Origin: Eledone cirrhosa
Lineage: Eukaryota
Direction: 5' to 3'
DNA: 64,000 nucleotides
NCBI GenBank assembly: GCA_964016885.1
Contig: OZ024763.1
Span: forward strand, 9,052,001 to 9,116,000
The translations under genes and the position numbers were made by a program. Below the pieces are notes generated by a model that ran no database searches, had not been told where the DNA came from, and saw only the letters and a list, made by a program, of their open reading frames with translations. This document shows, one piece after another, positions 10,092 to 51,069 of the stretch. Within the stretch, counting starts at the first letter, position 1. Each line of letters begins with the position of its first letter.

Positions 10092-10261
10092 GCATATATA
10101 TATATATATGCATGTATATATATATATATATGCATATATATATATATATATGCATATATATATATATGTATATATTTATATATATATGCATATATATATA
10201 TGCATATATATATGCATGTATATATATATATATGCATATATTTATTAAAATAACAGATTAA

Positions 10262-10312: not shown

Positions 10313-10612
10313 AACAAAGTCAATCTGTAAACGCAGAACTGGATATTTCAAAAAACGTTGCATCTTTGGATTTTAGTCTTCAATTTTATTATTATTACTA
10401 TATATGCATATATATATATATATATGCATATATATATATATATATGCATATATATATATATATATATGCATATATATATATATATGCATATATATATATA
10501 CACATATATTCATATACATATATATATATATATATGTGTGAGAGAGATATGTGTGTATGTATATGTATATATATGTATATAAATATATATATATATGTGT
10601 GCGATATGTATA

Positions 10613-11110: not shown

Positions 11111-11416
11111 TCAACCAATGAGAATGCACGATTCTTGCAGTCGGCTGAATTCTTCAATAAGAGACTTAATGATTGGATGGTTAGCTTCTCGTATTATAAT
11201 CACATTTTCACGGTTGATATGAGCAGCTGACCATGTGTAATTGTAAGAGCCGATAACTGCGGTAGTCTCGTCACAGATGAGGAACTTCTCGTGAGCGATG
11301 CCCATTGTGGCGCCAGTTTTCCTCTGGTAAGGTCCGGTTCCGCTGTTTTGACAGATGGTCACTTTCTCCGGAATAATCAGGTCGTTCTTGCCAAGCATCT
11401 CCAAAAATTTGTCCAC
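11111..11416 (-). CDS. FAM83/DUF1669-like PLD-fold protein, exon 2 (catalytic HKD motif, stop)
   Basis: AG acceptor at 11417-11418, phase 0. VDKFLEM...HEKFLICDETTAVIGSYNYTWSAAHINRENVIII...EEFSRL, TGA at 11111-11113. Confidence 0.85.
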   Translation of the reverse strand: MDKFLEMLGKNDLIIPEKVTICQNSGTGPYQRKTGATMGIAHEKFLICDETTAVIGSYNYTWSAAHINRENVIIIREANHPIIKSLIEEFSRLQESCILIG

Positions 11417-11650
11417 CTGATGATGACGACGGTGAAGATGTTCGTTGATGTTGGCGATGGTGATGATGATGATGGTGGTGGTGGTGATGGCGGCGATGGC
11501 GATGGTGATGATGATGATGGGGTTGATGATGATGGTGGTGGTGGTGATGGTGGTGTTGATGATGATGATGGTGGATGATGATGATGGCGGTGGTGATGGT
11601 TGTGATGATGATGATGGTGGTGGCGATGGTGATGATGGTGGTGGTGGTGG

Positions 11651-11682
<32 letters not shown>

Positions 11683-12034
11683 ATGATTAATGATAATGAT
11701 GATGGTGGTGGTGAAGATGTTCATTCGTTGATGTCGGCAGTGATGATGATGATGATAATGGTGATCATGGTGATGTTTGTTCATTCATTGATGTCGGTGG
11801 CAGTGGTGATGTCAATAACGACGTAGACGTAGGTTCATTTGTTGATGTCGATGGTGATGATGAATGCAGAGGTAGAGGAGGATGCAGAGGAGGTGGAGGC
11901 GAAAGTTTGATGTGAGATAAACATTTGTCAGGAACATATTTGGGTATTTTGGTTAATGGTGTCAACAGCAGCAGTGGCAGGCAGACAGGCAGACAGGTCA
12001 AGGGAATGAAAGAGAGAAATACAATGAAATGTTA

Positions 12035-13310
12035 ATAATAATAATAATAATAATGATAATAATGGTTTCTTTATCGGCCACAAGGGCTGACATCAAGAAA
12101 AACATTACAGACGGCACAGGACGGTACGATGTGGGTTTTGTGCGTGTAAAGATTTTTATTATTTATATAAGAAACGAAAAAGAAAAAAAGACATAGAAAC
12201 ATATAATAATAATAATAATGGTTTATTTATTAACCACAAGGGTTGACATAAAGTATAACATTAAGGGCAACACAGGGCGGTACAGGATGGTATAGGACGG
12301 TACAGGATGGTATAGGACGGTACAGGATAGCACAGGACGGTACAAATGGGCATTTCTGCATGTAAAGATAATAATAATAATAATGGTTTCTTTATTAACC
12401 ACAAAGGGACCACATCAAGAAAAACATTATGACAGTACAGGATGGAAACAGAGTGTGTGTGTAGGTGTGTATGTGTGAATGGGTTTTGTGTGTAAACAAA
12501 TTTTCACAATGTTAAAAACAATGATAATATAAAATTAAAACAAAGAAGGTTGCTCAATAGGGAGGAGACGTTCGAGGGTCATTTGTGAAAAAAAACCCAT
12601 AAAACCACAGATACCGTGATCTTTAGGGCAAGTGCCCTGTCCCAGTTGTACTCCTCCAATCTACAGGCTTACACTCAGAGGGGCCCATCCACCTGAGCCA
12701 CTCTCACCCACCTTTCAACAAACTGGTTGGAAAGCAACACTTCCCTCTCCACCCTGATTTTCCTCCCCAAGTGAAACCTGAAAAGGTCGAAGAGGACAAT
12801 GGCTGTCTTCAACCCTAATAATAATAATTTTTTTAATGGCCACAAGGGCTTATATGTAGGGGACAATACAACAGACAGGGACAGTGGGGGTTTACCAACA
12901 ATGATAATTCCCCAAAAAGGGATATAACCACCCAGGGGCGACTCAGGTACCCCACCAATAGTAAAAAAGAAAAATAACATAAAAATATAATGATAAATAT
13001 AATAATTTCTTTATTAGCCACACAGGGCTTACATTAAGAGGACAATAAGGATAGGACAGTGTGGGGTTTTGTGTGAAAAGGAAAGGTTTATAAAGAAAAC
13101 TAAAAAAATAAACATTTAAAAAATCAAAACATAACAAAATATCCCCTCCCATCCCAAACGGGGATACCTCCGAGGGTCACTCGTGGAGAAAGCCGACGAA
13201 AAAGCCATGGTAACCTTGACTGCTAGGGCAAGTGCCCTCTCTCAGTTGTACTCCCCACTCAGACCATGCTCACCTCTCTCACTCACCTTTCAATAAACTG
13301 GTTGGAATAC
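12035..13310 (-). mobile_element. Cluster of about 6 truncated 3' ends of a Tx1/L1-like element
   Basis: Repeated ccttgtggc(c/t)aataaa+(TTA)n termini. 12675-12790 encodes FRFHLGRKIRVEREVL, matching the ORF end at 17490-17540. Confidence 0.75.
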
Positions 13311-13486
13311 ACAGTATACAGAAAATAGAACTACTAGGTACTGTATATATATTATATAGAGTACTCTCAATACAATAGAAGAAACACTACCAAAAACTAC
13401 ACTGCACATACCCAAGGCACATAGAGCTGTGCTCGGTAATGCTGTGATAATGCACAAATAATAATAATGTTGAAAATAATAATAAT

Positions 13487-13885
13487 AATTGTTTCTACTT
13501 TAGGCACAAGCCAGCAATTACCCAGTGCATTACTGGTACTTTATTTTATCGACCCCGTAAGGATGAAAGGCAAAGTCAACCTCGACGGGATTTGAACTCA
13601 GATCGTAAAGGGACGTAACTATGCTGGAAAGCATGGCGTCCGACCCTCTACCGATACTGCCAATCCACCTCTGATTTAGGCACAAGGCCAACAATTTTTT
13701 TTTGTGGGGAGGGGAAAGTCGATTAACTCAACCCCAGTGCATTACTGGTACTTTATTTTACTGACCCCATAAGGATGAAAGGCAAAGCTAACCTCGGCTG
13801 TATTTGAACTCAGAAAGTAAAGAGCTGTAACTCTATGCCGCTAAGCATGGTGTCTGATGCTCAACTGATTACTGCCAATTTATCT
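13487..13885 (-). mobile_element. Two tandem tRNA-derived SINEs
   Basis: Reverse complement of the 7637-7821 SINE, twice. Confidence 0.85.
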
Positions 13886-13920
13886 AATAATAATAATGCT
13901 CTAATAATTGTTTAATTAAT

Positions 13921-14080
13921 AAGGTATAGAGTAGGTGTAGTAGAATGGATAAAAGTAGAGTTGGCTGAAATTCATTGGAAAACAAGGAAAAGGCTCACTA
14001 TCTATCGAAGTATGGTCCAAGAAGGTGATATTGAGAGGCTGTATTGGAATAGAAAGAAGGGAGGTAGGGGATTGTTGAAT
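13921..14080 (+). mobile_element. R4/Dong-like non-LTR RT fragment
   Basis: YRVGVVEW...ELAEIHWKTRKRLT...DIERLYWNRKKGGRGL motif. Confidence 0.6.
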
Positions 14081-14620
14081 GTAAAGTGGTCATGTAGGTG
14101 TCATGACAAAAAGTCCCCAGTCCACACTGTAAAGTGGTCATGTAGGTGTCATGACAAAAAGTCCCCAGTACACACTGTAAAGTAGTCATGTAAGTGTCAT
14201 GACAAAAAGTCCCCAGTACACACTGTAAAGTCGTCATGTAGGTGTCACAACAAAAAGTCCCTAGTCCACACTGTAAAGTGGTCATGTAGGTGTCACAACA
14301 AAAAGTCCCCAGTCCACACTGTAAAGTGGTCATGTAGGTGTCACAACAAAAAGTCCCCAGTCCACACTGTAAAGTGGTCATGTAGGTGTCACAACAAAAA
14401 GTCCCCAGTCCACACTGTAAAGTGGTCATGTAGGTGTCACAACAAAAAGTCCCCAGTACACACTGTAAATGTGGTTGGTGTTAGGAAGGCCTCCAGCCAT
14501 TGAAACCAAGCCAGAAACAGTTCTGTGTGAGCAAGACATGGTCACCTGATCCAACTTGGGACATCCAGTCTAACCCATGCTAGCAGGGAAGATGGATGTT
14601 AAAAGATGATGATGATGATG
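14079..14620 (+). repeat. 48-bp tandem repeat (about 8 units) amplified within an RTE-type 3' UTR ending in (GAT)n
   Basis: Unit tgtaaagtggtcatgtaggtgtcacaacaaaaagtccccagtccacac, related to 908-950. Followed by ggttggtgttaggaagg and the family tail. Confidence 0.85.
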
Positions 14621-14769
14621 TGACTGTACATTGTTTTATTTCCTTTTTCATGAGCTATATATATTTTTGTTGCTGTTGTTATCTTTTTAAACATACATTT
14701 ATTAAACGAAAACTAATATTATCGTCATCATCATCATCCAGTTTTTGATTATGCAGGACACAATTAATC

Positions 14770-15210
14770 CCTAAGAAGGGGTGGTCCTGCCTGGCAGCCC
14801 TCCTTAGCGTCCAGTTCTACATGTTTCTGTCCACTGGTCTCATTTGGGCCAGGCCTAGCCTAGCTTGATCCCGACAGACATCCATCCAAGTCCTTTTTGG
14901 TCTTCCTAGGCAGTTACTGCCTCCTGGATTGACATTCATCACTTTGTTGATCCAGCCCTCACTGCGCTTGACATGGCCGTACCAGCTCATGTGTCTCGTG
15001 TGAAGCACAACCTTGAGGTCATTGATCAGCAGTTTTTCCAGGAGCTCAGTTGAGCTAACATCATCATCAGTGGTCACACAGGACATCCAGCGGATCATAG
15101 CTCTGTCATTTCTTCTGAGCTGATTCAGATAGTCGGATGACAAGGTCCAGGTCTTGCTGGCATGGAGCAACACACTTCTCACACAGGCGTTGTAAATCTG
15201 CCCTTTGTGA
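14770..15210 (-). mobile_element. RTE LINE C-terminal fragment
   Basis: KGQIYNACVRSVLLHASKTW...WYGHVKR...GRPKRTW. Confidence 0.8.
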
Positions 15211-15467
15211 CATTATTACATATAACTATGAGATATAAATAGAAATAAGAATTAAGTTTGGTTATTTGGAAGCTGGACAATCCATGTTTGGTAAAAATGC
15301 CAAGGTAATAAAACTTTAGGCAAACTACCATACCTATATTATTTGACAATCCCTACAAGGCATGTCTCTGTTTTAAATATATACATAAATAACATAAAAA
15401 ATTTGTCAATATAACCCTCATCATAATATTACAAATAAAAAAAGAAAGGAGAAAGGAAAAAGAAAAA

Positions 15468-15709
15468 AACACACAAGCAGGTAATACACACATCTAGGAC
15501 CACATACAACACACAAGCAGGTAATACACACATCTAGGACCACATACAACACACAAGCAGGTAATATATACATCTAGGACCACATACAACACACAAGCAG
15601 GTAATATATACATCTAGGACCACATACAACACACAAGCAGGTAATACACACATCTAGGACCACATACAACACACAAGCAGGTAATACATACATCTAGGAC
15701 CACATACAA
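15468..15709. repeat. 40-bp minisatellite x6
   Basis: Unit aacacacaagcaggtaatacacacatctaggaccacatac. Confidence 0.9.
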
Positions 15710-16337
15710 GAAAAGGCAGGAGAAAGGGGTGGACAAACGAACCGCTGCCAGAGCAAAAGATAATATCGCGAGGAACACTGAGAAACCTCTCTAATAAATT
15801 TTTAGGTAAGCCAGCATGTTCACAGTGTTGCTTTGGGTGATGGCGAGGCTGATGCATTGGAACAGTCAAGCACCTTCACTAGCATCACCAATTAACTCAG
15901 TTAGCAGCCCAACTCCCCCAAACGTCTTGAACGCCACAGGCTGGAAAAGTAGTTAACTGAGAGATCTTGGTACTAAATATATATTTGCTAGAATTTGCAA
16001 CGCAGGCATTTAATAAAACATATCCTTAGACATTATTATCGCGGTGAGGTTAGCTTTGACTTTCATCATTATGAGGGGGTCGATAAAATATAGTACCAGT
16101 AACACACTGGGGGCGATTTGACTTCTCCTTCCCTCTCTGGACTTGTGCCTAAACCAGAAGCTATTATTATTACCAGCAGACCTGCCAACTTCTAACAACC
16201 CAAACGGGGAGAACCATGAAAAAAAAATGAGGCAAAATGGGGAGATTTTACATAATGAAAGCTATACCCAGACATCTCTCACCCACCCCAAAGTAGGTGG
16301 GAGATCTTCCATGTCAGATGGGGAGAGTTGACAGGTT

Positions 16338-17927
16338 TCTACCAGTAATGCACTGGAGTCAATTTAATCGGTGGGCTTACATCTCGGAACCTGGAGAGGC
16401 AAGCCCATGCCGTCCAACAGCGCCGTGGGGCTCTGGGCGGACGGGTAAAGTTGCTCGGGGTTTGTTTCGGACCAGACCTCCAGGTGGAAAAGAATTGGGA
16501 TGAGGTAACGAGCAGAGTAGCCAGTCTCACCCAAAAATAGGCTGGGAGGAAGCTATCACTGAAAGGTCGCGTGGAGGTGGCGTATGCGTACATCGCGTAC
16601 GTCATCTACTACCGCCTGACTGTCGTGCCTTGCCTCCATCCATGCCTCGTCAAGTTGGAACGGCTCCTCTTCAAATTCTTGTGGAGGGGACAAGTTCCGT
16701 TGGTGAGTTGGTCCATCTGCTGCCAGCACCCTCTACGCGGAGGGCTGGGCATGCCGTGGCTAATGATGCGCAGACATGCGTTGAGGCTGCAACATCTCCA
16801 GATATTCTGCCTAAACGGTGAACAGGTGTGGTCGCCGTTTATCAGACGGGTCTTTCCGCAGCTCGTTTCTTTGACTGAGCTGCAGTCCTGGGTCAAGAAG
16901 AGACCGAGACTGGGTGACTGGCACCTGGAATGTTGCAGGCACTCACTGCCCTCTACCAAGCGGGGAATGCGATCAGTGGAACTTCCACTCTCGAGTTCTA
17001 TAGAGGATTAGTGGTGGGCAAGTGCGATGATGCACTCGGAGAAGCTTTGGGCCTCGATGAAGTTGAACTGACCAGTCTGTACTGGAGGACTTTCGAGCCG
17101 GGGACGATGGACAATTTCCAGAAATCCCTCGCTTGGCAGTGCTACCGGGGGGCCCTGCCGGTTCGAGACAAACTCTACAGGCACGGAAGTGCTGTCAGAT
17201 GGACCTGCCCAAGATGCGCACAGAACGACAAAACCGTTCTGCACGCACTTGTCCAATGTCCGTGCATTACTGACTTGTGGAGTTATGTCAAACAGCTACT
17301 GTCGCGTGTGGAACGAATCCGGCTATCGGCCGAGTCCATAGTGAAGATCGACCCGCCGCCTTCCTTAGGTCAGGAAGAGCAGGACATTTTCCTCTGTCTG
17401 GTGGCAGTTGCGAAAGAGGTTATATGGTGGACCAGATTAAAAGGACTGAAGACAGACACTTTTCTCTTCGGCCAATCCCTCATCAACTTCTTCAAGTTTC
17501 ACCTGGAAAGGAAGGTGAGGGTGGAGAGAGAAGTGCTGCCCCCCCCCCCCCCAGTACATTTGCTAAAAGGTGGATGAATGTGGCGAGAATGGCCTGTGTG
17601 AATGGGCCTACTCTGACCATGCGCCTATAGGCTAGCTAACTCGAGGAGAGGGGTGCTCGCCCTGGGTGCCCTAAAAGCACAGGGGGGTTCAGGATTAGTG
17701 GGTACCCGAGTCACCCCAGGGTCGTCCACCCCCTATCGGGGAATTTATTTTGTTATATTTATGCATAGTTTATTTTATATTTTTATATCTTCATTGTTAA
17801 ATTAGTCTTACCATTGTGCACTTTTACTCGACCTTATTGTAAACCCCCACTGTCCCTGTCTTTGTATTGTCCCCTACATGTCGGCCCTTTTGGCTAATAA
17901 ATGAAATCATTATTATTATTATTATTA
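16338..17927 (+). mobile_element. Tx1/L1-clade LINE, 5'-truncated and degenerate (RT thumb + zf-RVT)
   Basis: FKFLWRG...GGLGMP; ALPVRDKL...CPRC...TVLHALVQC zinc knuckle; stops and frameshifts; AATAAA plus (ATT)n tail. Confidence 0.85.
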
Positions 17928-18589
17928 TATACTCGCATTAATTAAACAAAATTTAGAACATTTTGTACGTAAAATTAGAAATACTTGGAATAGAATAACA
18001 ATGCTTGTTACAATTACCAAATTATTATTATATATAAAAAAATTTTTTTATATTAAGCATCTAAATATTGATCTGAATCTTAAATATGATTTTTAACGAA
18101 TGAATATTTGTATAAATTGATTTCCTTCTATCGAAAAATCTTCATTCAACAAAAAAAAAAAAAATGTTGAATGAAAAGATGAGTATATGAAAAACTAAGA
18201 ACGGACTGAAACGAAACCAAGCCTCAATCTATTCGCGCACTCACCTTAATAAAGTATTTTATATATATTTTTTAATAAAAATTGAATTTTAATGACAAAT
18301 AACTGCCCGAAGTGTTAATGTTGTACCGGATATCTATACTTAAATAAAGTATTATACATTTGTGTGTGTGTATATATATATATATAATGTGCATGTATGT
18401 TTTATATATATAAAAAACATGTAATGCACAGCGTATAATGTATGCATGTGTTACACACACATACATTATATATATACGCACCTTAAACCGATAAACTATT
18501 TATATAATAATATATAAGATACACGAATGACATATTGTGATAATTTTGCATAGAAAAACATACAGGATGTAATGTCATATATACACACG

Positions 18590-18621
<32 letters not shown>

Positions 18622-18813
18622 CAGGATGGAATGTCATATACACATACACACGTATATATATATATATACATATTAGAGACACACACCCGCAATAATTAAA
18701 ACTGGGTATATACCCTTACTGTTTAATGGGGTACCCCACAATGAAACCAGTGTCTAATGGAGTGTAAATCTATATTCAGCCATCCAACCATATATATATA
18801 TATCATGTTTCAT

Positions 18814-18924
18814 GTTTAATATAGAAATGACTTCTACGGGGCTAGAACTGTTTCATTCGAAGGAAATCATCAGGAAAGACCCTGATTATTTCCTTTGAAT
18901 GAAACAGTTCTAGTCCTAGAAGCC
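18814..18924. mobile_element. Small fold-back element family F with degenerate hammerheads
   Basis: Inverted ctagaactgtttcattc...aaatcatcagg / cctgattatttcc..gaatgaaacagttctag. Homologous to 54188-54388 and 21516-21640. Confidence 0.7.
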
Positions 18925-19104
18925 ATATATATATATATATATATATACATATATATATACATATATTGTATACATCTGTGTGTGTATAAATATATATATA
19001 TATATGCACACATATATTATGTATATGTGTGCATATATGTGTGTGTATGTAAATGTATATATATTTATATGCATATATATGTGTGTGTTATTAGCTGTAC
19101 CTAC

Positions 19105-19923
19105 CTGTGCAGCATCCAATAATATATCAACAGAGACGAGAGCATTTGAGGCCGCCTCACACAGGGCATTATATATGAAGATGTCTGTGAAGAGGTACAT
19201 GGCTATTTTAATGGAGAGACGAGCTTGGCTTATTGTATTTAATATAACATCGTGGATATGGGGTTGCGAGTCCATTAAAGGTGGTTGGAACAACACACAA
19301 ACTCCGGATTCGGGCCAATGTAAGGTCGATCCTTGTTGTAGGCGATTTGGTGTGGGTAGCAGACAGCGACGGCTGTCTGTTGTGTCTCCTTCGAGTTTTT
19401 CGTCCTCGCTTAGATTAGATAGGGGTAGATCTGAGGTGGTATTGGTGTTAGTAGTGTTGGTTGTAGTTGTGGTGGTGGTGGTGGTGGTGGTGAGGGCGGT
19501 GGCTGTGGTCTCGTCGCGATCGTGACAGCGGTCGGTGTCAGCAATTAGAAGATTGTAAACATCCAAATCCTTCTTCTTATCTAATCCTAATTCTTCATCA
19601 CCAACATCAGCTTCACCCTCAGCCCCACAAACACCATCATCACCCTCAGCAGCCTCACCATCATCATCATCGTCATCTGTGGTGTGTTCAACGTCCCTCC
19701 ATTGATGAATACGGCTGGTTTTTAAGATAAACTGGAGACGTTCGCTGGTCGAAATAGTTCCTTGGTCCTGGAAATATTTCTCTTCTTCGTCACTAAGGAA
19801 TAAAGGGATGTTATGGCTCTCTAAATAATTAAAATAAGCCTCTAAACCTTCGTTTGCAAGAATAAAAACTGCTTCGTATTGGTATTGAAGCATGTTTTCT
19901 GATGTGGCTGCTGGAGTCGACAT
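19105..19923 (-). CDS. FAM83/DUF1669-like PLD-fold protein, exon 1 (273 codons)
   Basis: EGLEAYFNYL..FLSDEE, WP, VLFQPP..PHIHDVI..I..A...I.IAMYLFTD..I...L.EA.....V.ILLD match the FAM83 N-terminal domain. Donor CAG|GTAGGT at 19105/19104, phase 0; joins exon 2 as ILLDAAQ-VDKFLEM. Confidence 0.85.
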
Positions 19924-19944
19924 TGTGTAGTCTTTCTCTCACTG

Positions 19945-20830
19945 CAGCTGCTACTACTGACACTACCACTACAGCTACTACCACAGCTGCTGCTGCTGAC
20001 ACTACCACTACAGCTACTACCACAGCTGCTGCTGCTGACACTACCACTACAGCTACTACCACAGCTGCTGCTGCTGACGCTACCACTACAGCTACTACCA
20101 CAGCTGCTGCTGCTGGCACTACCACTACAGCTACTACCACAGTTGCTGACACTACCACTACAGCTACTACCACAGCTGCTGCTGCTGGCACTACCACTAC
20201 ATCTACTACCACAACTACTGCTGCTCGCACTACCACCACAGCTGCTGCTGACACTACCACTGCAGCAGCTACTACTACGACAGTTACTACAGCTACTGCT
20301 GTTGTTTCTACCACTACTGCTACTACAGCTACCACTACTACTACGACAGTTACTGCTGCTGACACTACCACTACAGCAGCTACCACTACTACTACTACTG
20401 CAGCTACCACTACTACTACTACTACTACTGCAGCTACCACTACTACCACCACAGCTACTACTGTTGTTACTACCACTACTACTACGACAGCTACTACTGC
20501 AGTTACCACTACTACTACGACAGTTACCACAGCTACTACTACTACTACTATTATGACAGTTACTACAACAGCTACTACTACTACTACAGCTACTCCTGCT
20601 GTCACTACCACCACTACTACTACAGCTGCTACTACTACTACTACTACAGCTACTGCTGCTGCTACTACCACCACTACTACTACTACAGCTACTGCTACTA
20701 CCACCACTAATACTACTACAGCTTCTGCTACTGCTGCTGCTACTACCACCACTACTACTACTACAGCTACTGCTACTGCTACTACCACCACTAATACTAC
20801 TACTGCTACTGCCACTACTACTACTACTAC
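19945..20830. repeat. (ACT/ACC/GCT)n trinucleotide-derived array, with about 39-bp higher-order units at the start
   Basis: gacactaccactacagctactaccacagctgctgctgct units decaying into (ACT)n, directly upstream of the FAM83-like ATG. Confidence 0.85.
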
Positions 20831-21009
20831 AAAAAAAAAAGATTTGGATCGATAAGGAGTTCTCTCCCTTCCTTCCTTCTTATAACATGTACCTCCCGAG
20901 AGGGAGTTTTCGTATTGAAATTGCGAGGATAGACTTAATTGATTAAAGATTATTATTCTATGTGATTACATGTACACATACACACATATATACACATATG
21001 TGCTATAAA

Positions 21010-25726: not shown

Positions 25727-28700
25727 GATAGCAACTAACAGTGCTGCGATCGAATGTGGCTTTTTAGCCCAGCCAATGATCCAAAATGTCTTGCACAGAG
25801 TCGGCAACCAAAACATTTACTGGGAATAGTCGGCTGTGGTTGGAGTTCGTGTACTTTTGCATGTCGCTTGAGTCCTCCTGCTGATTTACATTCTCTACCA
25901 CATGTTTGGCAAGCATGATGAGTAGCATCTCCAACAGCAGCCTGGTAGTCAACCACTGGTCTTACTTTATGACTGCGAAGATGACTTTCGAGTCCAGCTT
26001 TGCTTAGGCAGAGTCTCGCACAGACGCTGCATGTCAGAAACATAGGAGGACCCTCGCCGTCTGGAAGTGCAACAGCAATACCCTTCCTCACGTCCCGCTT
26101 TACTTTCTCGTGTGCGATTCGAGATGCCTCAAAGGCAACTTTTCCCTCATATACAGTCTTTCTCCATTTATTACGATCAGCAGCAATATTTTCCCATGTA
26201 TCAGCAGAGATGTTAGCGTCTTTCAGAGAGGCCTTCAAGGAATCCTTATACCTCTTTTTTGGTTTATGTGGCGGTCGTTTTCCTTTAACCAACTCTCCAT
26301 AGAAGAGTTGTTTTGGTATTCTAGAATCCTTCATCCTGGCAAGGTGACCACTCCAACGGAGTCGCTGCTTAAGCACAAGAGCTTCTATACTGTCACACAT
26401 AGAGCTTTCCAAAATCTCGACATCACTGATGTGGTCCCTCCAGCGAACGCCATGTATCCGTCTGAGACACATCTGATGGAAACGCTCCAATTGCTTAAGG
26501 TGGCGTCGATATGTGACCCAGGTCTCGCAGGCATAAAGAAGACAAGAGAGTACACATGCCCTGTACACCTTTACCTTTGTCCTCCTGCATATGTCTCGCC
26601 GACCCCAGAGTCGCCTTTCTAGCTTTCCGAAAGCATCACTTGCTTTCCTAATCCTAAGTGAGATTTCACTGTCAAGGTTGCCGTATCGATTGACAGTGCT
26701 TCCCAGGTAGACAAACTGATCAACCACTCCAAGTCGTTTGCCATACACATAGATGTTTGGTTCAGTGTACTGCCTACCAGGTGCAGGTTGGTACATGACG
26801 ACGGTTTTCTTGAGACTGACAGTCAAACCCAGGGCAGTGCAAGCGTCAGAAAATACATTCAAAATGTGCTGCATATCACTCTCTGTGTGCGCTACAAGAT
26901 CGCAATCATCTGCATACAAGAGGTCTCTTATGACTGATGTAAATACTTTTGTCTTCGCAGCAAAGCGCCTGATGTTAAATATGCTGCCTGAGGTTCGATA
27001 TCGGATGTAAACACCATGCTCGCAATTCCTGAATGCAATACAGAAAACCATTGCAAAGTATATGGCAAACAGGGTCGGTGCTGGAATATCCCCCTGTTTC
27101 ACTCCATTTTTTACTGAGATAGGCTCCGACATGTTACCTCCGACATTAACCCAAGCCTTCATGTCGTCATGGAAAGACCTAACTAAAGCAAGGAACTTAT
27201 CAGGGCAACCAAGTTTCTGGAGAACCTTCCATAATGCATCTCTGTTGACAGTATCGAAAGCCTTTGTCAGATCGACAAAAACCTGATACAGATCCAAGCC
27301 CTGTTCAATGCACTTCTCCTGGAGCTGTCTAGCTGAGAAGATCATATCAGTAGTGCCGCGTCCAACACGAAAACCAGATTGACTTTCAGGAAGGACACAA
27401 TCTGCAATGTGTGTCAGCAGACGGTCCAGAAGCACCCTACATAAAACTTTCCCCACGACAGAAAGCAATGATATACCTCTGTAGTTCCCACAATCATTCC
27501 TGTTACCCTTTCCCTTGTACAAGACCACCATTACTGCATCTCTCCAGTCCTCAGGCACGGATTCATTAGCCCATATCCTTCCAAACAGAGAGTGAAGATG
27601 TTGCAGGAGTCTCTCACCACCATATTGTAGGAGCTCAGCATGTATGCCATCCATACCTGGAGATCTTCCACTGTTCAGCTTCGAAATAGCCACTGCAACC
27701 TCCACAAGTGTCGGAGGCTCTGCGAGAGCTACTTTCACAGGACTTTCCGGAATGAGATTGAGGAAATCTTCACTGACGACAGACGGCTGATTCAAAAGAT
27801 CATCAAAGTGCTCCCGCCACCTTCGTAGAATTCCCTGTGAGTCACGAAGAAGTTCTTTGCCATCCCTGCTGCGAATCGGTGTCACCAGAGAAGAAGACGG
27901 TCCATAAACCTCACGCAAGAGACTGTACAACAGCTTTGTGTTATTGCAATCAGACGCAGTTTGTATCTCACCAGCCTTCTCACTCCACCACTGATCCTTC
28001 ATCTGAGAAAGACTCCGCCTAACACGTGATTTTACATCCCTGAGCTCCTCATGCAACGTATTCCTCTCCTGTGGTCTTGCCGTCAAGTAGCGTGACAGAG
28101 CGCGCCTCTTATCAGCCAACAAGTCATCTATATGCACATCTTTCTCATTAAACCAGTCCTGATGTTTTCTCTGCACCAATCCCAGAACACGTCTGCCTAC
28201 ATCATAAACCGACTTTTTAAGGGTCGGCCAATCCTCACCAAGATCTGCAGCCTGCATCTCTTCTTCCAATGTCCTCTTCACATTTTTATCCTTAAGACGA
28301 GCAGCATTCAATCTTTTGGGCAGGGTAACACCAGGAGCCCGGATTTTACGTTTGGTGATTAGATTCACTTTTGCGCGTACCAGGCGGTGGTCCGTCCAGC
28401 ACTCAGCTCCACGAAGAACACGAACACACCGCACATCCTGTCTGTCACGCATCCTGACTAGGACGTAGTCCAAAAGATGCCATTCCTTAGATGCAGGATG
28501 CATCCATTGTGGTCTTGAATTTGTTCTTTTGTTGGAACATGGTGTTGGTAACACACAGATCCAGCTCCTCACACATCTGCAGCAAGAGCATACCATTGCT
28601 GTTACACTTTCCCACCCCATGCCTTCCGATTACATTCCATGTGTTAAAATCCCTACCCACTCTAGCATTAAAGTCACCAAGCACGATGACTTTGTCTGCC

Positions 28701-29321
28701 TGAGGGATATTTCTTAAAACACCTTTCAAGGCATGGTAAAAGGACAGTTTTTCTTCATCGACAGAATTCATAGTTGGAGCATACACACTCACCAGGGTAG
28801 CATATCTTCCCTTGTCCAGCGGAACTCTCATGGACATAAGACGCTCACTAATCCCCACTGGGAATTCTTCCAATTTATTCACCAGTACAGTCTTAACAGC
28901 AAATCCTACCCCAGCCTCTCTTCTGGTTCCTTCATCTCTTCCTTTCCAGAAGAATGTATATTCTCCACAAAATTCCGTAAGATGACCATCTCCAGCTAAC
29001 CTCGTCTCAGACAAAGCCACGATGTCAAGATCGTAACGTCGAAGCTCCTTCGCAACAAGAGCGGTCCTTCGTTCAGGACGCTCCAAAGAATCCCTGTCAA
29101 GCAGCGTCCGTACGTTCCAGCAGCCAAGACTAAATGCCCTGTTTGCTCTATTACAATGGCACGATGACGGGCGGGCCCAGGTTGTGATAACTTGGGGCCC
29201 CTGCCCTTATTGCCAATGATCTTTTTTGTTCCAGAACCCAAATTGGCAATTATCTCGTTTACATTGTTCTGGAACATCATTGAATTGGGAAAAAAAAAAA
29301 AAAAAAAAAATAATAATAATA

Positions 29322-46232: not shown

Positions 46233-46940
46233 TAATTGTTTCTACATTTGGCACAAGACCAGCAATTACCCAGTACATTACTGGTACTTTATTTTATCGA
46301 CCCGTAAGGATGAAAGGCAAAGTCAACCTCCATCATGTTATAATAATAATTGTTTCTACATTTGGCACAAGGCCAGCAAATAACCCAGTACATTACTGGT
46401 ACTTTATTTTATCGACCTTGTAAGGATGAAAGGCAAAGTTAACCTCGGCGGGATTTGAACTCATACCATAAAGGGCAGTACTCTTTGATGTAAAGCATGG
46501 CGTCCGATTCTCTACTGATACTGCCAATTCACTGCCCTTGTTATAATAATACTAATAGTAATTGTTTCTACTTTTGGCACAAGGCCAGCAAATAACCCAG
46601 TATATTACTGGTACTTTATTTTATCGACCCCGTAAGAATGAAAGGTAAAGGTAACCTCGGTGGGATTTGAACTCAGACCATAAAGGGCCGTAACTCTTTT
46701 TTGCAAAGCATGGCCGATTCTCTACCGATACTGCCAATCCATTCTAGAATAGGCACAAGGCCAGTAATTTGGAGGAAGGGGACTGTCGATTAAATCGACC
46801 CCAGTGCATTTCTGGTACTTTATTTTATCGACCCCGTAAGGATGAAAGGCAAAGTTAACCTCGGTGGGATTTGAACCCAGAACGTAAAGGGCCGTAACTC
46901 TATGCCTCAAAGCATGGTGTTCAACACTCTACCGATTCTA
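46233..46940 (-). mobile_element. Four tandem tRNA-derived SINEs filling an intron
   Basis: Repeated SINE core at about 46233, 46348, 46560 and 46747. Confidence 0.85.
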
Positions 46941-46961
46941 ATAATAGTAACATTATCTCAC

Positions 46962-47142
46962 CTGTTGTAATGTGATGAGGGTTGTAAGGAAAAGTGGTCT
47001 TCATTTCACCATAAGGGTAGTGACTGCTTGAGGGATATGCAGCGCTTAAGCTAGCAATAGTGGTGGTAGCTGTGGCTGTTGGTGGAGACCATGTTGAGGA
47101 GTGCATCGTGTCGGCCGTGGAAAGGCTTTGGAATCCTGGCAT
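46962..47142 (-). CDS. Same gene, penultimate exon (Ser/Thr/Pro/Tyr-rich)
   Basis: ttttatttcttAG|ATG...ACAACAG|GTGAG; 181 nt, phase 0 to 1, in frame with both neighbours. Confidence 0.75.
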
Positions 47143-47609: not shown

Positions 47610-47700
47610 CTTATTCCACGCCTACCTCCAATTATTTGGGATCCGAAAGTAGGAAGAAGAAAATAAAAGCAAGAATTCAGATATCCAGTTAGAATTTTAC

Positions 47701-48000
47701 CTGGTTTGTATGAGGGAAGTATGAATCGACCAGGGCCGAGTAATGTCCATCAGCTTTTATAAAAGGAGGGTAGGAAGTGTCGGTTTTAGGTAGACTTGGA
47801 TAGTTATCTGGTCGAACAAGTCCTGGGTAGTGTGCCGCGTGTGCTGCCACGTCAGGTTTCAAAGATGTCTGACTATGGAATGGTGCAGGGAATGAAGGAG
47901 CCGACGGCTGCGACGACCGGTGCCAAAAGGAATCTGAAAAATGAGGACGAAAATTAATGTTGTTATGTGTAGGGATGGTCATGTAGCCAGGACTGGCAAA
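47701..48000 (-). CDS. Same gene, upstream exon (Pro/Ser/His/Tyr-rich transactivation-like region)
   Basis: ttctcAG|TTT...AACCAG|GTAAAA; 300 nt, phase 0/0, FASPGYMTIPTH...YFPHTNQ. Confidence 0.75.
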
Positions 48001-48115
48001 CTGAGAACATGAACATCACTATATATAATACTCTCTCTCTCTCACACACACACACACATATATATATATACATACAGAGGGAGGGAGGGAGGGAGGGAGG
48101 GAGGGAGGGAGAGAG

Positions 48116-48984: not shown

Positions 48985-50030
48985 TTACGTATCGAGAGAG
49001 AGAAAAAAAGGGGAGGAAAGGTGATACATATAGTTATTTGCCAAGTAGCGTATGCCAAAGGTGCTGGATACTAGTGCCGGCAATATTAAATATTCGAAGT
49101 GTTAATATTTAGTGGGCTAGAAAGTTAGCAGAGCGTAAGCACGTGGGAAAGTAAGAAATCGGAGAATTGACCGTTAAAACATGTTTATTTAAAACAGCAC
49201 CTACGTACGTTTCGCCCAGTTGGGCTTCTCAAGGGCATAAATAATCAAAAGTGTTCCTTACATTGCTCGGAAAGAGTTTTTGGGGTTAAATCCACGTCAA
49301 GGTTCATTGCTCGCAAAAATAGCTTGTTTTGATTTTGCAGCAGGTCAAGGGAGGTAACTCTGTCCGGTGTTAGGGCAGTCTTTCCCGGACACATTTTTTA
49401 TCCGCTACGAGATGAGGTTACAACCTTACCATTGTCGATACGCATGTAATCAACGCTTAATTTGAGAGTTTTTTTTGCCGCATCTGTTTGAGGCTGGGTC
49501 TGGTATGCAAGGATAGTTTCCTGGGTGTTATTTTGCAGCGTCTGCCCGCCGGGGTGTTAAGACTTGTTGCAGGGAGATCCGGTGCACGGTTTCACTCCTC
49601 ATACTTAACCCATCTGAAGAAGGATATTTTTAAGCGATGTGTACAACTTATCGCTGTTTCAGCTCTGCTGTTGATGAGCTCGTGGGGTGCAGTTATGATG
49701 TGGTAGAGCTCCATGAGACAAAGATCGCATTTCCTCTTGAAGTTGTACGGTGCAGCCCTGCCGACAATATCCCAGTGCGTGGAGAAGCTGATGTTTAAGT
49801 CCTTTAGTGATGTGATGTAGTCCGCGAGCGAAGTGGAGTGTTTTAGTTTTTTATTTGTGAAAGGGTGGAGATGTGTTCGAAACCTAATTTTGAACGGGCC
49901 GGAGGTAGCTCCTATATAATGTTTAACGCTATTGTGGCTAGTTATAGTGCATCTATATATAACCCTATCAGTCAAGCAGTATCCTCTAAGGGGGCAGCGT
50001 CCTCTGTCGCGGCAGTTGCAATTTCTGTCG
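48985..50030 (-). mobile_element. Penelope-like element 3' part: GIY-YIG endonuclease ORF end (49592-50030) and 3' pLTR with hammerhead
   Basis: CNCRDRGRCPLRGYCL..VIYRC...YIGATSGPFKIRF..H...CDLCLME...NSRAE...CTH. Confidence 0.85.
49197..49236 (-). ncRNA. Minimal hammerhead ribozyme with U3-A8 core variant
   Basis: Minus strand: gccc-TTGAGAA-gccca/tgggc-GAAA-cgtacg-TA-ggtgc. Confidence 0.7.
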
Positions 50031-51069
50031 CGGACTGGGTCTAAAAATATTGGTTGCCAGGAGATGAAGGGGGCCCACCTACATATAGAATGCTATCATT
50101 TAATTTTTATTATTTTCGAAAAATACATAACTGGAAACAAAACAGTGCAATCAAATATTTGTGGAAAAATAAAAAATATGTATTTTGGGAAATCCAGAGA
50201 CTTTCAATAATGACCAGAAGTCGACCCTAAATATTACTAATAGCTCTAGGGAAGCCATGAACGACAACACATATTTTTAACTTTGATTTAGAAAGTAGGT
50301 TTATAAATATCAATTTTCATTATACTTTTGTAGCTGTCTCGGTGGCCTACTTGGAGGAATCGTAGACGGTGGTGATCCTGGTCTGAAGTTCGATCCTAGT
50401 CCGGAGTAGGGTTTCCGGTAAACTTTTTCCGTTTTTTTCTATTGGTTATGAAATAAAAACTGAAAAAGTTTACTTGTAACTCTTGAGCAGGATTGAACCC
50501 AAGACCAGGATTTCCACCATCTCTAGTACTTACCACTAGGCCACAGAGACAACTACGAAAAACGTCTGAAAATTCTTACTTATAAATTAACAAAAGAAAG
50601 TGTTGTGGTGTTGTTCATGTCTTTCTTAATGTTATTGCTCCTACTTAAGGTCGACTTCTAAATCATTTGAGTGTTCCAGAAACTACATCCTCGTTTTGTT
50701 TCACATCTATCTAGACTATATTTTAACCTGTAATCCATGTTTCATTTCTGTTTCACCTCATTTCTATCCTCCTCTCTGTGATATTTCAATCTACAATGAT
50801 TTGTACTTACTCTATTCATATATATATATATACATGTGTGTGTGGTGTGTGTATGTATGTATTTAGTGCCGACATAGTAACAATACCCAAAACATATGTC
50901 CTGCTTGTGGGTCGGGGGTTGGGGTGTGAAGTGAGGCCCTGTGAGTGAGAGGGGAGGTGTTTGTGAGGTGGTGGTGGGGGACACTAGAAGAAAAGTAAAA
51001 AAACAGGAAAAGAGGAGAAAAAGAAGCCAGCGAAGAGATTGGAAGAAAGCAGACGATAACAGATGTGAA

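Follow-up and report, generated by a model that had tools for sequence, protein, structure and literature searches.

A tail-less SACK1-domain gene of Eledone cirrhosa that keeps a complete single-HKD motif set

Gene structure and cephalopod orthologs

The stretch of Eledone cirrhosa DNA analysed here (64,000 nucleotides, positions 9,052,001 to 9,116,000 of contig OZ024763.1, assembly GCA_964016885.1; below, the window) belongs to an animal genome of 3.0 Gb and is rich in repeats; it carries, on its minus strand, a two-exon gene for a relative of the FAM83 (SACK1-domain) proteins with the residues of a phospholipase D (PLD) active site. Coding exon 1 (19105..19923, residues 1-273), also located by tblastn of orthologs, comprises 819 nucleotides or 273 codons from an ATG at 19923 and runs into a phase-0 GT donor (GTAGGT). 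Coding exon 2 (11111..11416, residues 274-374), directly preceded by CATCAG, comprises 306 nucleotides, encodes 101 amino acids followed by TGA, and supplies the second half of the PLD core without a C-terminal tail. The phase-0 intron between them (11417..19104, 7,688 nucleotides, GTAGGT...CATCAG) contains no N, and splicing yields a 374-residue product with a single terminal stop. This is the gene that an initial annotation, made from the sequence alone, had proposed (two minus-strand exons with canonical phase-0 splice sites and a product of about 374 residues).

Near its N-terminus the encoded protein has the SACK1 domain's three-helix region (~residues 14-75; 19699..19884), delimited with a hidden Markov model (HMM) and the structure model of an ortholog. 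An acidic, Thr-rich, low-complexity linker follows (residues 76-206; 19306..19698), recognised by its ortholog identity and pLDDT (predicted local distance difference test) values, and then the first half of the PLD-fold core (19105..19305; FQPP, MYLFTD, VDILLD), in which D266 occupies the FAM83G Y204 position. FAM83G numbering was taken from the rhinoceros protein (P0027), which equals the human protein at A34, Y204, I206, D262, F296, and F300. Exon 2 encodes the HxK(x)4D motif (11270..11293; H315, K317, and D322, which aligns with FAM83G D262), the GSYN motif six residues past the Asp (11240..11251; S330, N332), an NREN motif that is the same as that of mouse PLD6 in the alignment (11204..11215; N341, E343, N344), and LIEEF (11147..11161), with L359 at the F296 position and F363 at F300. 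The catalytic positions in the 374-residue numbering are H315, K317, D322, S330, N332, and E343. Every motif listed in the initial annotation was present (GLEAYFNYL..FLSDEE, FQPP, MYLFTD, ILLD/..FLEM across the exon junction, HEKFLICD-x6-GSYNYTWS, NREN, LIEEF). The stop codon lies 11 residues past the last Phe of the domain, where the orthologs also end; the highest 19-residue hydropathy is 1.34, and the N-terminus is not signal-like.

A protein search returned seven relatives among 1,107 candidates. Orthologs in Octopus vulgaris, Argonauta hians, and Sepia (Acanthosepion) pharaonis, with cluster members from O. sinensis and O. bimaculoides, match the PLD core, and by this sequence comparison the gene is not a chance reading frame. 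Compared with five orthologs, the N-terminal helices have 43-57 of 68 residues identical, the linker 2-39 of 131, and the PLD core 104-153 of 168; the core drifts to ~62% identity across the orthologs while the catalytic residues remain unchanged. Three unspliced read-through forms (P0005-P0007) diverge from the family sequence at LLDATQ/V, which is the Eledone exon junction; the protein is conserved in Octopus, Argonauta, and Sepia with an intron at the identical site. Full-length forms P0009 (312 residues) and P0014 (319 residues, 15 contigs) are contained complete in contigs no longer than 1,105 and 1,120 bases, respectively; because such contigs are too short for a long intron, these forms are probably spliced transcripts. 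The Eledone gene gave the only SACK1 match in its genome, and exon 2 was likewise matched once; both counts are lower bounds. The gene is already present in databases, where its cephalopod orthologs carry automatic FAM83A, B, F or G-like labels. We found no paper describing this gene in the open-access literature, and passages from PMC3417536, PMC5500323, and PMC7226759 hold nothing on invertebrate FAM83.

The intron contains microsatellites and fragments of long interspersed nuclear elements (LINEs), among them a LINE fragment with a zf-RVT domain on the strand opposite to the gene (16541-17574, plus strand). A trinucleotide-like repeat at 19940-20900 stands immediately upstream of the ATG, and a Ser-rich N-terminal extension in the O. 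bimaculoides model P0012 may derive from a similar repeat. Candidate polyadenylation signals (AATAAA) occur on the minus strand at ~10385-10390 and ~10241-10246, 720 and 864 nucleotides past the stop.

Family membership, fold, and phylogeny

An exhaustive profile search with an E limit of 0.001 returned 3,144 proteins; the 150 listed comprised 3 cephalopod proteins, 4 short proteins, 113 vertebrate-type FAM83 proteins, and 30 Nuc-like or two-domain PLDs. Names were checked for 11 of the 113, all of them vertebrate (lamprey and hagfish included), and the remainder are assumed to be vertebrate. No named non-coleoid invertebrate appeared among these listed matches, and a second, word-index protein search gave zero additional matches; with coleoid cephalopods as the only named invertebrates among the matches listed, the label 'invertebrate' of the initial annotation proved too broad. 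The best listed matches outside cephalopods, P0017 and P0018, belong to a second group of proteins of 250-280 residues with SACK1 helices, HxK, GSYN, and (I/L/V)NRE and with neither tail nor signal peptide (P0017, P0018, P0021, P0099, P0164-P0169, P0180-P0184, P0190-P0193). Their genes were called as single open reading frames (ORFs), and are intronless, in unannotated assemblies from ENA, NCBI, JGI, and Logan, on contigs that reach 2.18 Mb. The contigs of P0018 and P0181 have the same length (7,077), which suggests tandem paralogs, and one paralog cluster (P0192, P0193) lacks the His. A split copy is seen in P0184/P0192.

Searches for the source of the second group gave no result. A scan of genome contigs produced 250 candidate stretches, the best 80 of which were Nuc-like, with 28-36% identity over the core only; phages and plasmids gave only Nuc-like matches near 30%, metagenome scans found none, and the single match in the viral scans (L086) was due to chance. 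The ESM Atlas returned generic PLD clusters only, and the best match in a viral fold library had 18% identity. None of 401 genomes sampled from a single bacterial class gave a match at E 1e-20, a count made without a positive control that carries no weight.

Both exons match the Pfam SACK1 model (DUF1669, PF07894; cut-off 21.4 bits), exon 1 with E 2.4e-14 (54 bits), so that it does carry DUF1669 similarity, the lack of which would have counted against the initial annotation, and exon 2 with E 3.8e-10 (40 bits); exon 2 also matches PLDc_2 above the cut-off (E 4.6e-12). The SACK1 match alone is insufficient, because the model also matches bacterial PLDs. On its own, exon 2 matched PLD6 best (E 5e-7), and a profile of six full-length orthologs matched FAM83B (7.6e-21) and FAM83A (5.3e-13) much better than PLD6 (4e-7) and Nuc (1.5e-6). 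An HMM of the three-helix region, built from the N-termini of 97 of the 113 vertebrate-type FAM83 sequences, matched 17 of the 17 intact-site proteins tested (two N-terminally partial ones were left out) and 0 of 49 outgroup proteins at an independent E-value (iE) of ≤0.001 and Z 100. The Eledone region matches this vertebrate-only HMM with iE 5e-7, and in the register of the alignment its A18 and F42 correspond to FAM83G A34 and F58. By its domain, the protein is a member of the SACK1 family.

A structure model from 6 sequences (pLDDT 44.6) was discarded; that of the Sepia ortholog, built from 48 sequences, had a mean pLDDT of 79, and in it the helices (~20-75) and the core were confident and the stretch at 88-145 was disordered. 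Its three-helix region exceeded pLDDT 90, and its linker fell below 50. FAM83G is reported to be likewise laid out as helices, a disordered loop (74-128), and a core (bioRxiv 2025.06.25.661481). The Sepia core matched FAM83B (Z 25.3, root-mean-square deviation 1.6, 161 residues aligned) and FAM83A (Z 24.0) ahead of NucT (Z 21.8), Nuc (Z 20.2), and mouse Zucchini (Z 17.4), a ranking on which the richness of the folding alignment in FAM83 rows bears.

Trees of the core domain (LG+C20) moderately support a position beside vertebrate FAM83. A quick 92-row tree placed 45 vertebrate-type rows in one branch together with the cephalopods and the second group (Shimodaira-Hasegawa-like approximate likelihood ratio test 90), with the vertebrate-type rows monophyletic (100). 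A careful 50-row tree joined the cephalopods with the second group (80/86) as sister to vertebrate FAM83 (100/100), the joint branch receiving 82/91. PLD6, represented only by Eledone's own two genes, was placed elsewhere, among Nuc-like proteins (outgroup rows without names are presumed bacterial). Approximately unbiased (AU) tests rejected grouping of the cephalopods with PLD6 (p 0.024) and their placement inside a FAM83B/cyclostome group, picked after seeing the tree (p 1.8e-6). The initial annotation had pictured a possible proto-FAM83 linking FAM83 with single-HKD enzymes such as PLD6 and Nuc; the trees and the two PLD6 genes of the genome point instead to a sister lineage that would keep the ancestral state, not to a link between FAM83 and PLD6. 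Read-through fragments of medaka FAM83B place introns after QEARE and within GTYS-YSW, both sites lying inside Eledone exons that lack these introns, and vertebrate FAM83 genes are not known to have the cephalopod intron.

The two PLD6-like genes lie apart from this locus and encode a hydrophobic N-terminus and a Cys/His finger; one, checked against the PDB, matched PLD6 with E 1.5e-17. They correspond to PLD6/Zucchini-like paralogs L087/L091 and L088/L092 (G000:C5), the second of which reads NHEH for the usual NxEN. Other exons in the genome are, we presume from their motifs, PLD1/2-like and PLD3-like.

Active-site and CK1-contact residues

In a census of 181 core domains, classed by motif and with one low-coverage locus dropped, all 8 cephalopod sequences carried H, K, D, S, N, and E. 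The full H/K/D/N/E set also occurred in 10 of 11 second-group sequences and 44 of 49 Nuc-like/PLD6 outgroups, and in none of the 113 vertebrate-type FAM83 sequences; four of the latter, of FAM83D type, keep the His, all without the Asn and Glu. The position distinguishing M-D from M-Y/F was excluded as evidence, as rows had been classed by it. HEKFLICD-x6-GSYN with the downstream NREN, highlighted in the initial annotation, is a full single-HKD catalytic set by this census, and domain matches and motifs together support a tail-less SACK1/FAM83 relative that carries it. For comparison, the active site of PLD3 is formed by His, Lys, and Asn, single-HKD homodimers are typically nucleases (PMC10783504), and the protein shares its GS variant of the GG/GS motif with Nuc and Zucchini (PMC8004604).

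The Sepia ortholog (residues 14-319) was also predicted as a homodimer, with a score of 0.76 (best of three controls, 0.01), contact agreement of at least 86%, and pLDDT of at least 71. Microbial homodimers attained the score mark in 21 of 30 cases and eukaryotic ones in 17 of 29, and no single chain did so (0 of 23 and 0 of 30). Contacts with the lowest error run from residues 256-260, which include His258 and Lys260, to residues 273 and 283-287 of the partner; His258 (H315 in Eledone) is predicted to touch partner residues S273, N284, R285, and E286. In this model the catalytic residues sit at the interface, and the predicted contacts are those that a composite active site requires. The predictor may have reproduced known structures, because dimers of FAM83A/B, Nuc, and Zucchini have been solved, and the result shows likeness rather than binding.

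At positions that matter for CK1 binding by FAM83G, the Eledone protein keeps the equivalents of A34, F58, and D262 and has Leu for I206, as in other members. R52 aligns to Ser. All 113 vertebrate-type rows have Tyr at the Y204 position, where 8 of 8 cephalopods have Asp. At the F296 position, 19 of 19 intact-group rows have Leu, and Phe or Tyr stands in 111 of the 113 vertebrate-type rows and in 46 of 49 outgroups. The initial annotation had noted that the CK1-docking FxxxF reads LIEEF here. The Leu stands; FxxxF as a hallmark of CK1 docking does not, because an aromatic first residue in nearly all Nuc-like/PLD6 outgroups makes it an old feature of the fold, in which the Leu is derived. Asp at the Y204 position appears to be a stronger sign against CK1 docking. 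Y204A and F296A abolish CK1 binding (PMC6008594; bioRxiv 2025.06.25.661481), and we infer weak or no CK1 anchoring because residues needed at both positions in FAM83G are replaced; that the protein binds CK1 seems doubtful.

Genomic surroundings and proposed function

The surroundings of the gene gave no functional clue: among 22 ORFs scanned, three had Pfam matches, all to retrotransposon domains. In a non-LTR (long terminal repeat) retrotransposon at 25738-29206 (minus strand), the frame for an endonuclease (PF03372) is overlapped by a 964-residue reverse-transcriptase frame that ends in C2H2-like fingers. Two exon-like open frames rich in Pro, His, Ser, and Tyr (46924-47142 and 47692-48015, minus strand) have no Pfam match, and an open frame at 49595-50092 (minus strand), without a Pfam match at 0.01, resembles a Penelope GIY-YIG endonuclease. 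About 40 kb from the gene, after an N gap, ~742 copies of CCCTAA fill 59568-64000 in the orientation of a left chromosome end; at 9.1 Mb into contig C24, the array is either interstitial or the product of a join made in scaffolding.

Likeness to known systems is greatest for FAM83A-H/SACK1A-H (5LZK, 4URJ; PMC6008594), the best sequence and fold match, with which the Eledone protein shares the three-helix region, disordered loop, a PLD core containing FTD and a loop like KTGA, a single HKD-type motif, a predicted homodimer, and the D262 equivalent. It differs from them in being cephalopod, in lacking the tail, in keeping the His, the GSxN Asn, and the NxEN Glu together, and in its Asp at Y204 and Leu at F296. 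With PLD6/Zucchini/MitoPLD (4GGJ, 4GEL) it shares a single HxKx4Dx6GSxN motif plus NREN, a predicted homodimeric site, and a C-terminal EEF helix, but it has SACK1 helices, lacks the mitochondrial anchor and Cys/His finger, and falls in a separate clade. Bacterial Nuc and NucT (1BYR, 6EHI) have the same catalytic set and fold, whereas the Eledone protein is only ~20-23% identical to them and has no signal peptide, extra N-terminal helices, FAM83-type insertions, and a more acidic core. These comparisons suggest a SACK1-domain lineage that would work in the manner of Nuc and PLD6 and that lacks the pseudo-motif and tail of FAM83 proper.

On balance, we favor the reading that the tail-less SACK1 protein of this single-copy, two-exon gene is likely a phosphodiesterase, active, soluble, and homodimeric, and probably does not anchor CK1. 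If it works like Nuc and PLD6, a pair of subunits would share a single active site lying on the two-fold axis, where His315 of one subunit would attack phosphorus to give a phosphohistidine and the other His315 would serve as general acid. Lys317, Ser330, and Asn332 would hold the phosphate, and Glu343 would position the partner His, as the Glu of Nuc does for the His of its partner subunit. Single-stranded nucleic acid would be the most likely substrate, taking about half of the active case, with a phospholipid or a small phosphodiester as alternatives; the absence of a signal peptide or membrane anchor points to the cytosol or nucleus as the place of action.

Several observations weigh against this reading. 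FAM83D keeps the HKD motif and showed no PLD activity, a finding reported as unpublished (PMC6008594), although its missing Asn and Glu, both kept in cephalopods, fit that lack. The net charge of the core is -7 in Eledone and -2 to -6 in other cephalopods, compared with +3 to +4 in three Nuc-like rows, and such acidity speaks weakly against nucleic acid substrates. The structural and dimer evidence comes from models of the Sepia ortholog and not of the Eledone protein. When 22 motif columns were removed, long bacterial-type outgroup rows intruded and the joint branch with vertebrate FAM83 lost its resolution, which leaves the three-helix region as the firmest shared character. Finally, with A34, F58, D262, and a hydrophobic residue at I206 kept, some CK1 binding may be possible; FAM83A, which lacks the Tyr, still binds, although most weakly (bioRxiv 2025.06.25.661481).

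This last point bears on an unlikely alternative, a bifunctional protein that is a phosphodiesterase, active or weakly so, and already uses its three-helix region and D262 pocket to bind CK1, scaffolding having preceded the loss of catalysis. CK1-disrupting disease mutations (A34E, R52P, F58I) map to the three-helix region (bioRxiv 2025.06.25.661481), which the Eledone protein has, and Phe to Leu at F296 is a conservative change; Asp in every cephalopod at Y204, Leu throughout the intact group at F296, and Ser at R52 argue against such docking. Less likely again is an inactive pseudo-enzyme that binds phosphate or another ligand, its residues kept for binding or dimer geometry and not for turnover. 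The FAM83D precedent, the acidic core, and the loss of His from P0192 and P0193 are consistent with it, but conservation of the full set, Asn and Glu included, across octopods, cuttlefish, and the second group, together with its absence from all vertebrate-type rows, favors catalysis. The PLD6 match of exon 2 and the FAM83B match of the full profile could be taken to indicate a divergent PLD6/Zucchini paralog or a fish-derived vertebrate FAM83 with a rebuilt active site, and either is highly improbable. The AU test, the three-helix region missing from PLD6, and the two canonical, membrane-anchored PLD6 genes elsewhere speak strongly against the paralog; a fish origin is opposed by the second AU test and would need His, Asn, and Glu to be regained together.

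If the favored phosphodiesterase reading holds, the cephalopod gene and the second group likely keep the ancestral active SACK1 state, and the vertebrate stem would have lost His, Asn, and Glu and gained tails and the CK1-binding Tyr. A SACK1 domain from an active ancestor might have passed by patchy horizontal transfer to coleoids and to the vertebrate stem separately, becoming a CK1 scaffold in vertebrates only, with a donor resembling the intronless, tandemly duplicated second group. This route agrees with the unshared intron sites and with the absence of further named invertebrates from the matches listed, but we consider it improbable, and repeated loss also accounts for the patchy distribution.

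FAM83 genes have been described as vertebrate-only, with no member of known activity and with the route and reason of PLD loss open (PMC6008594). A small, natural, tail-less SACK1 protein with a whole active site makes that question testable. The ancestral substrate, perhaps also what the pseudo-active site of vertebrate members binds as its ligand, becomes assayable, and a test of CK1 binding could order the loss of catalysis relative to the gain of scaffolding. For cephalopods, the gene adds a third candidate single-HKD enzyme to the genome, beside the two PLD6 genes.

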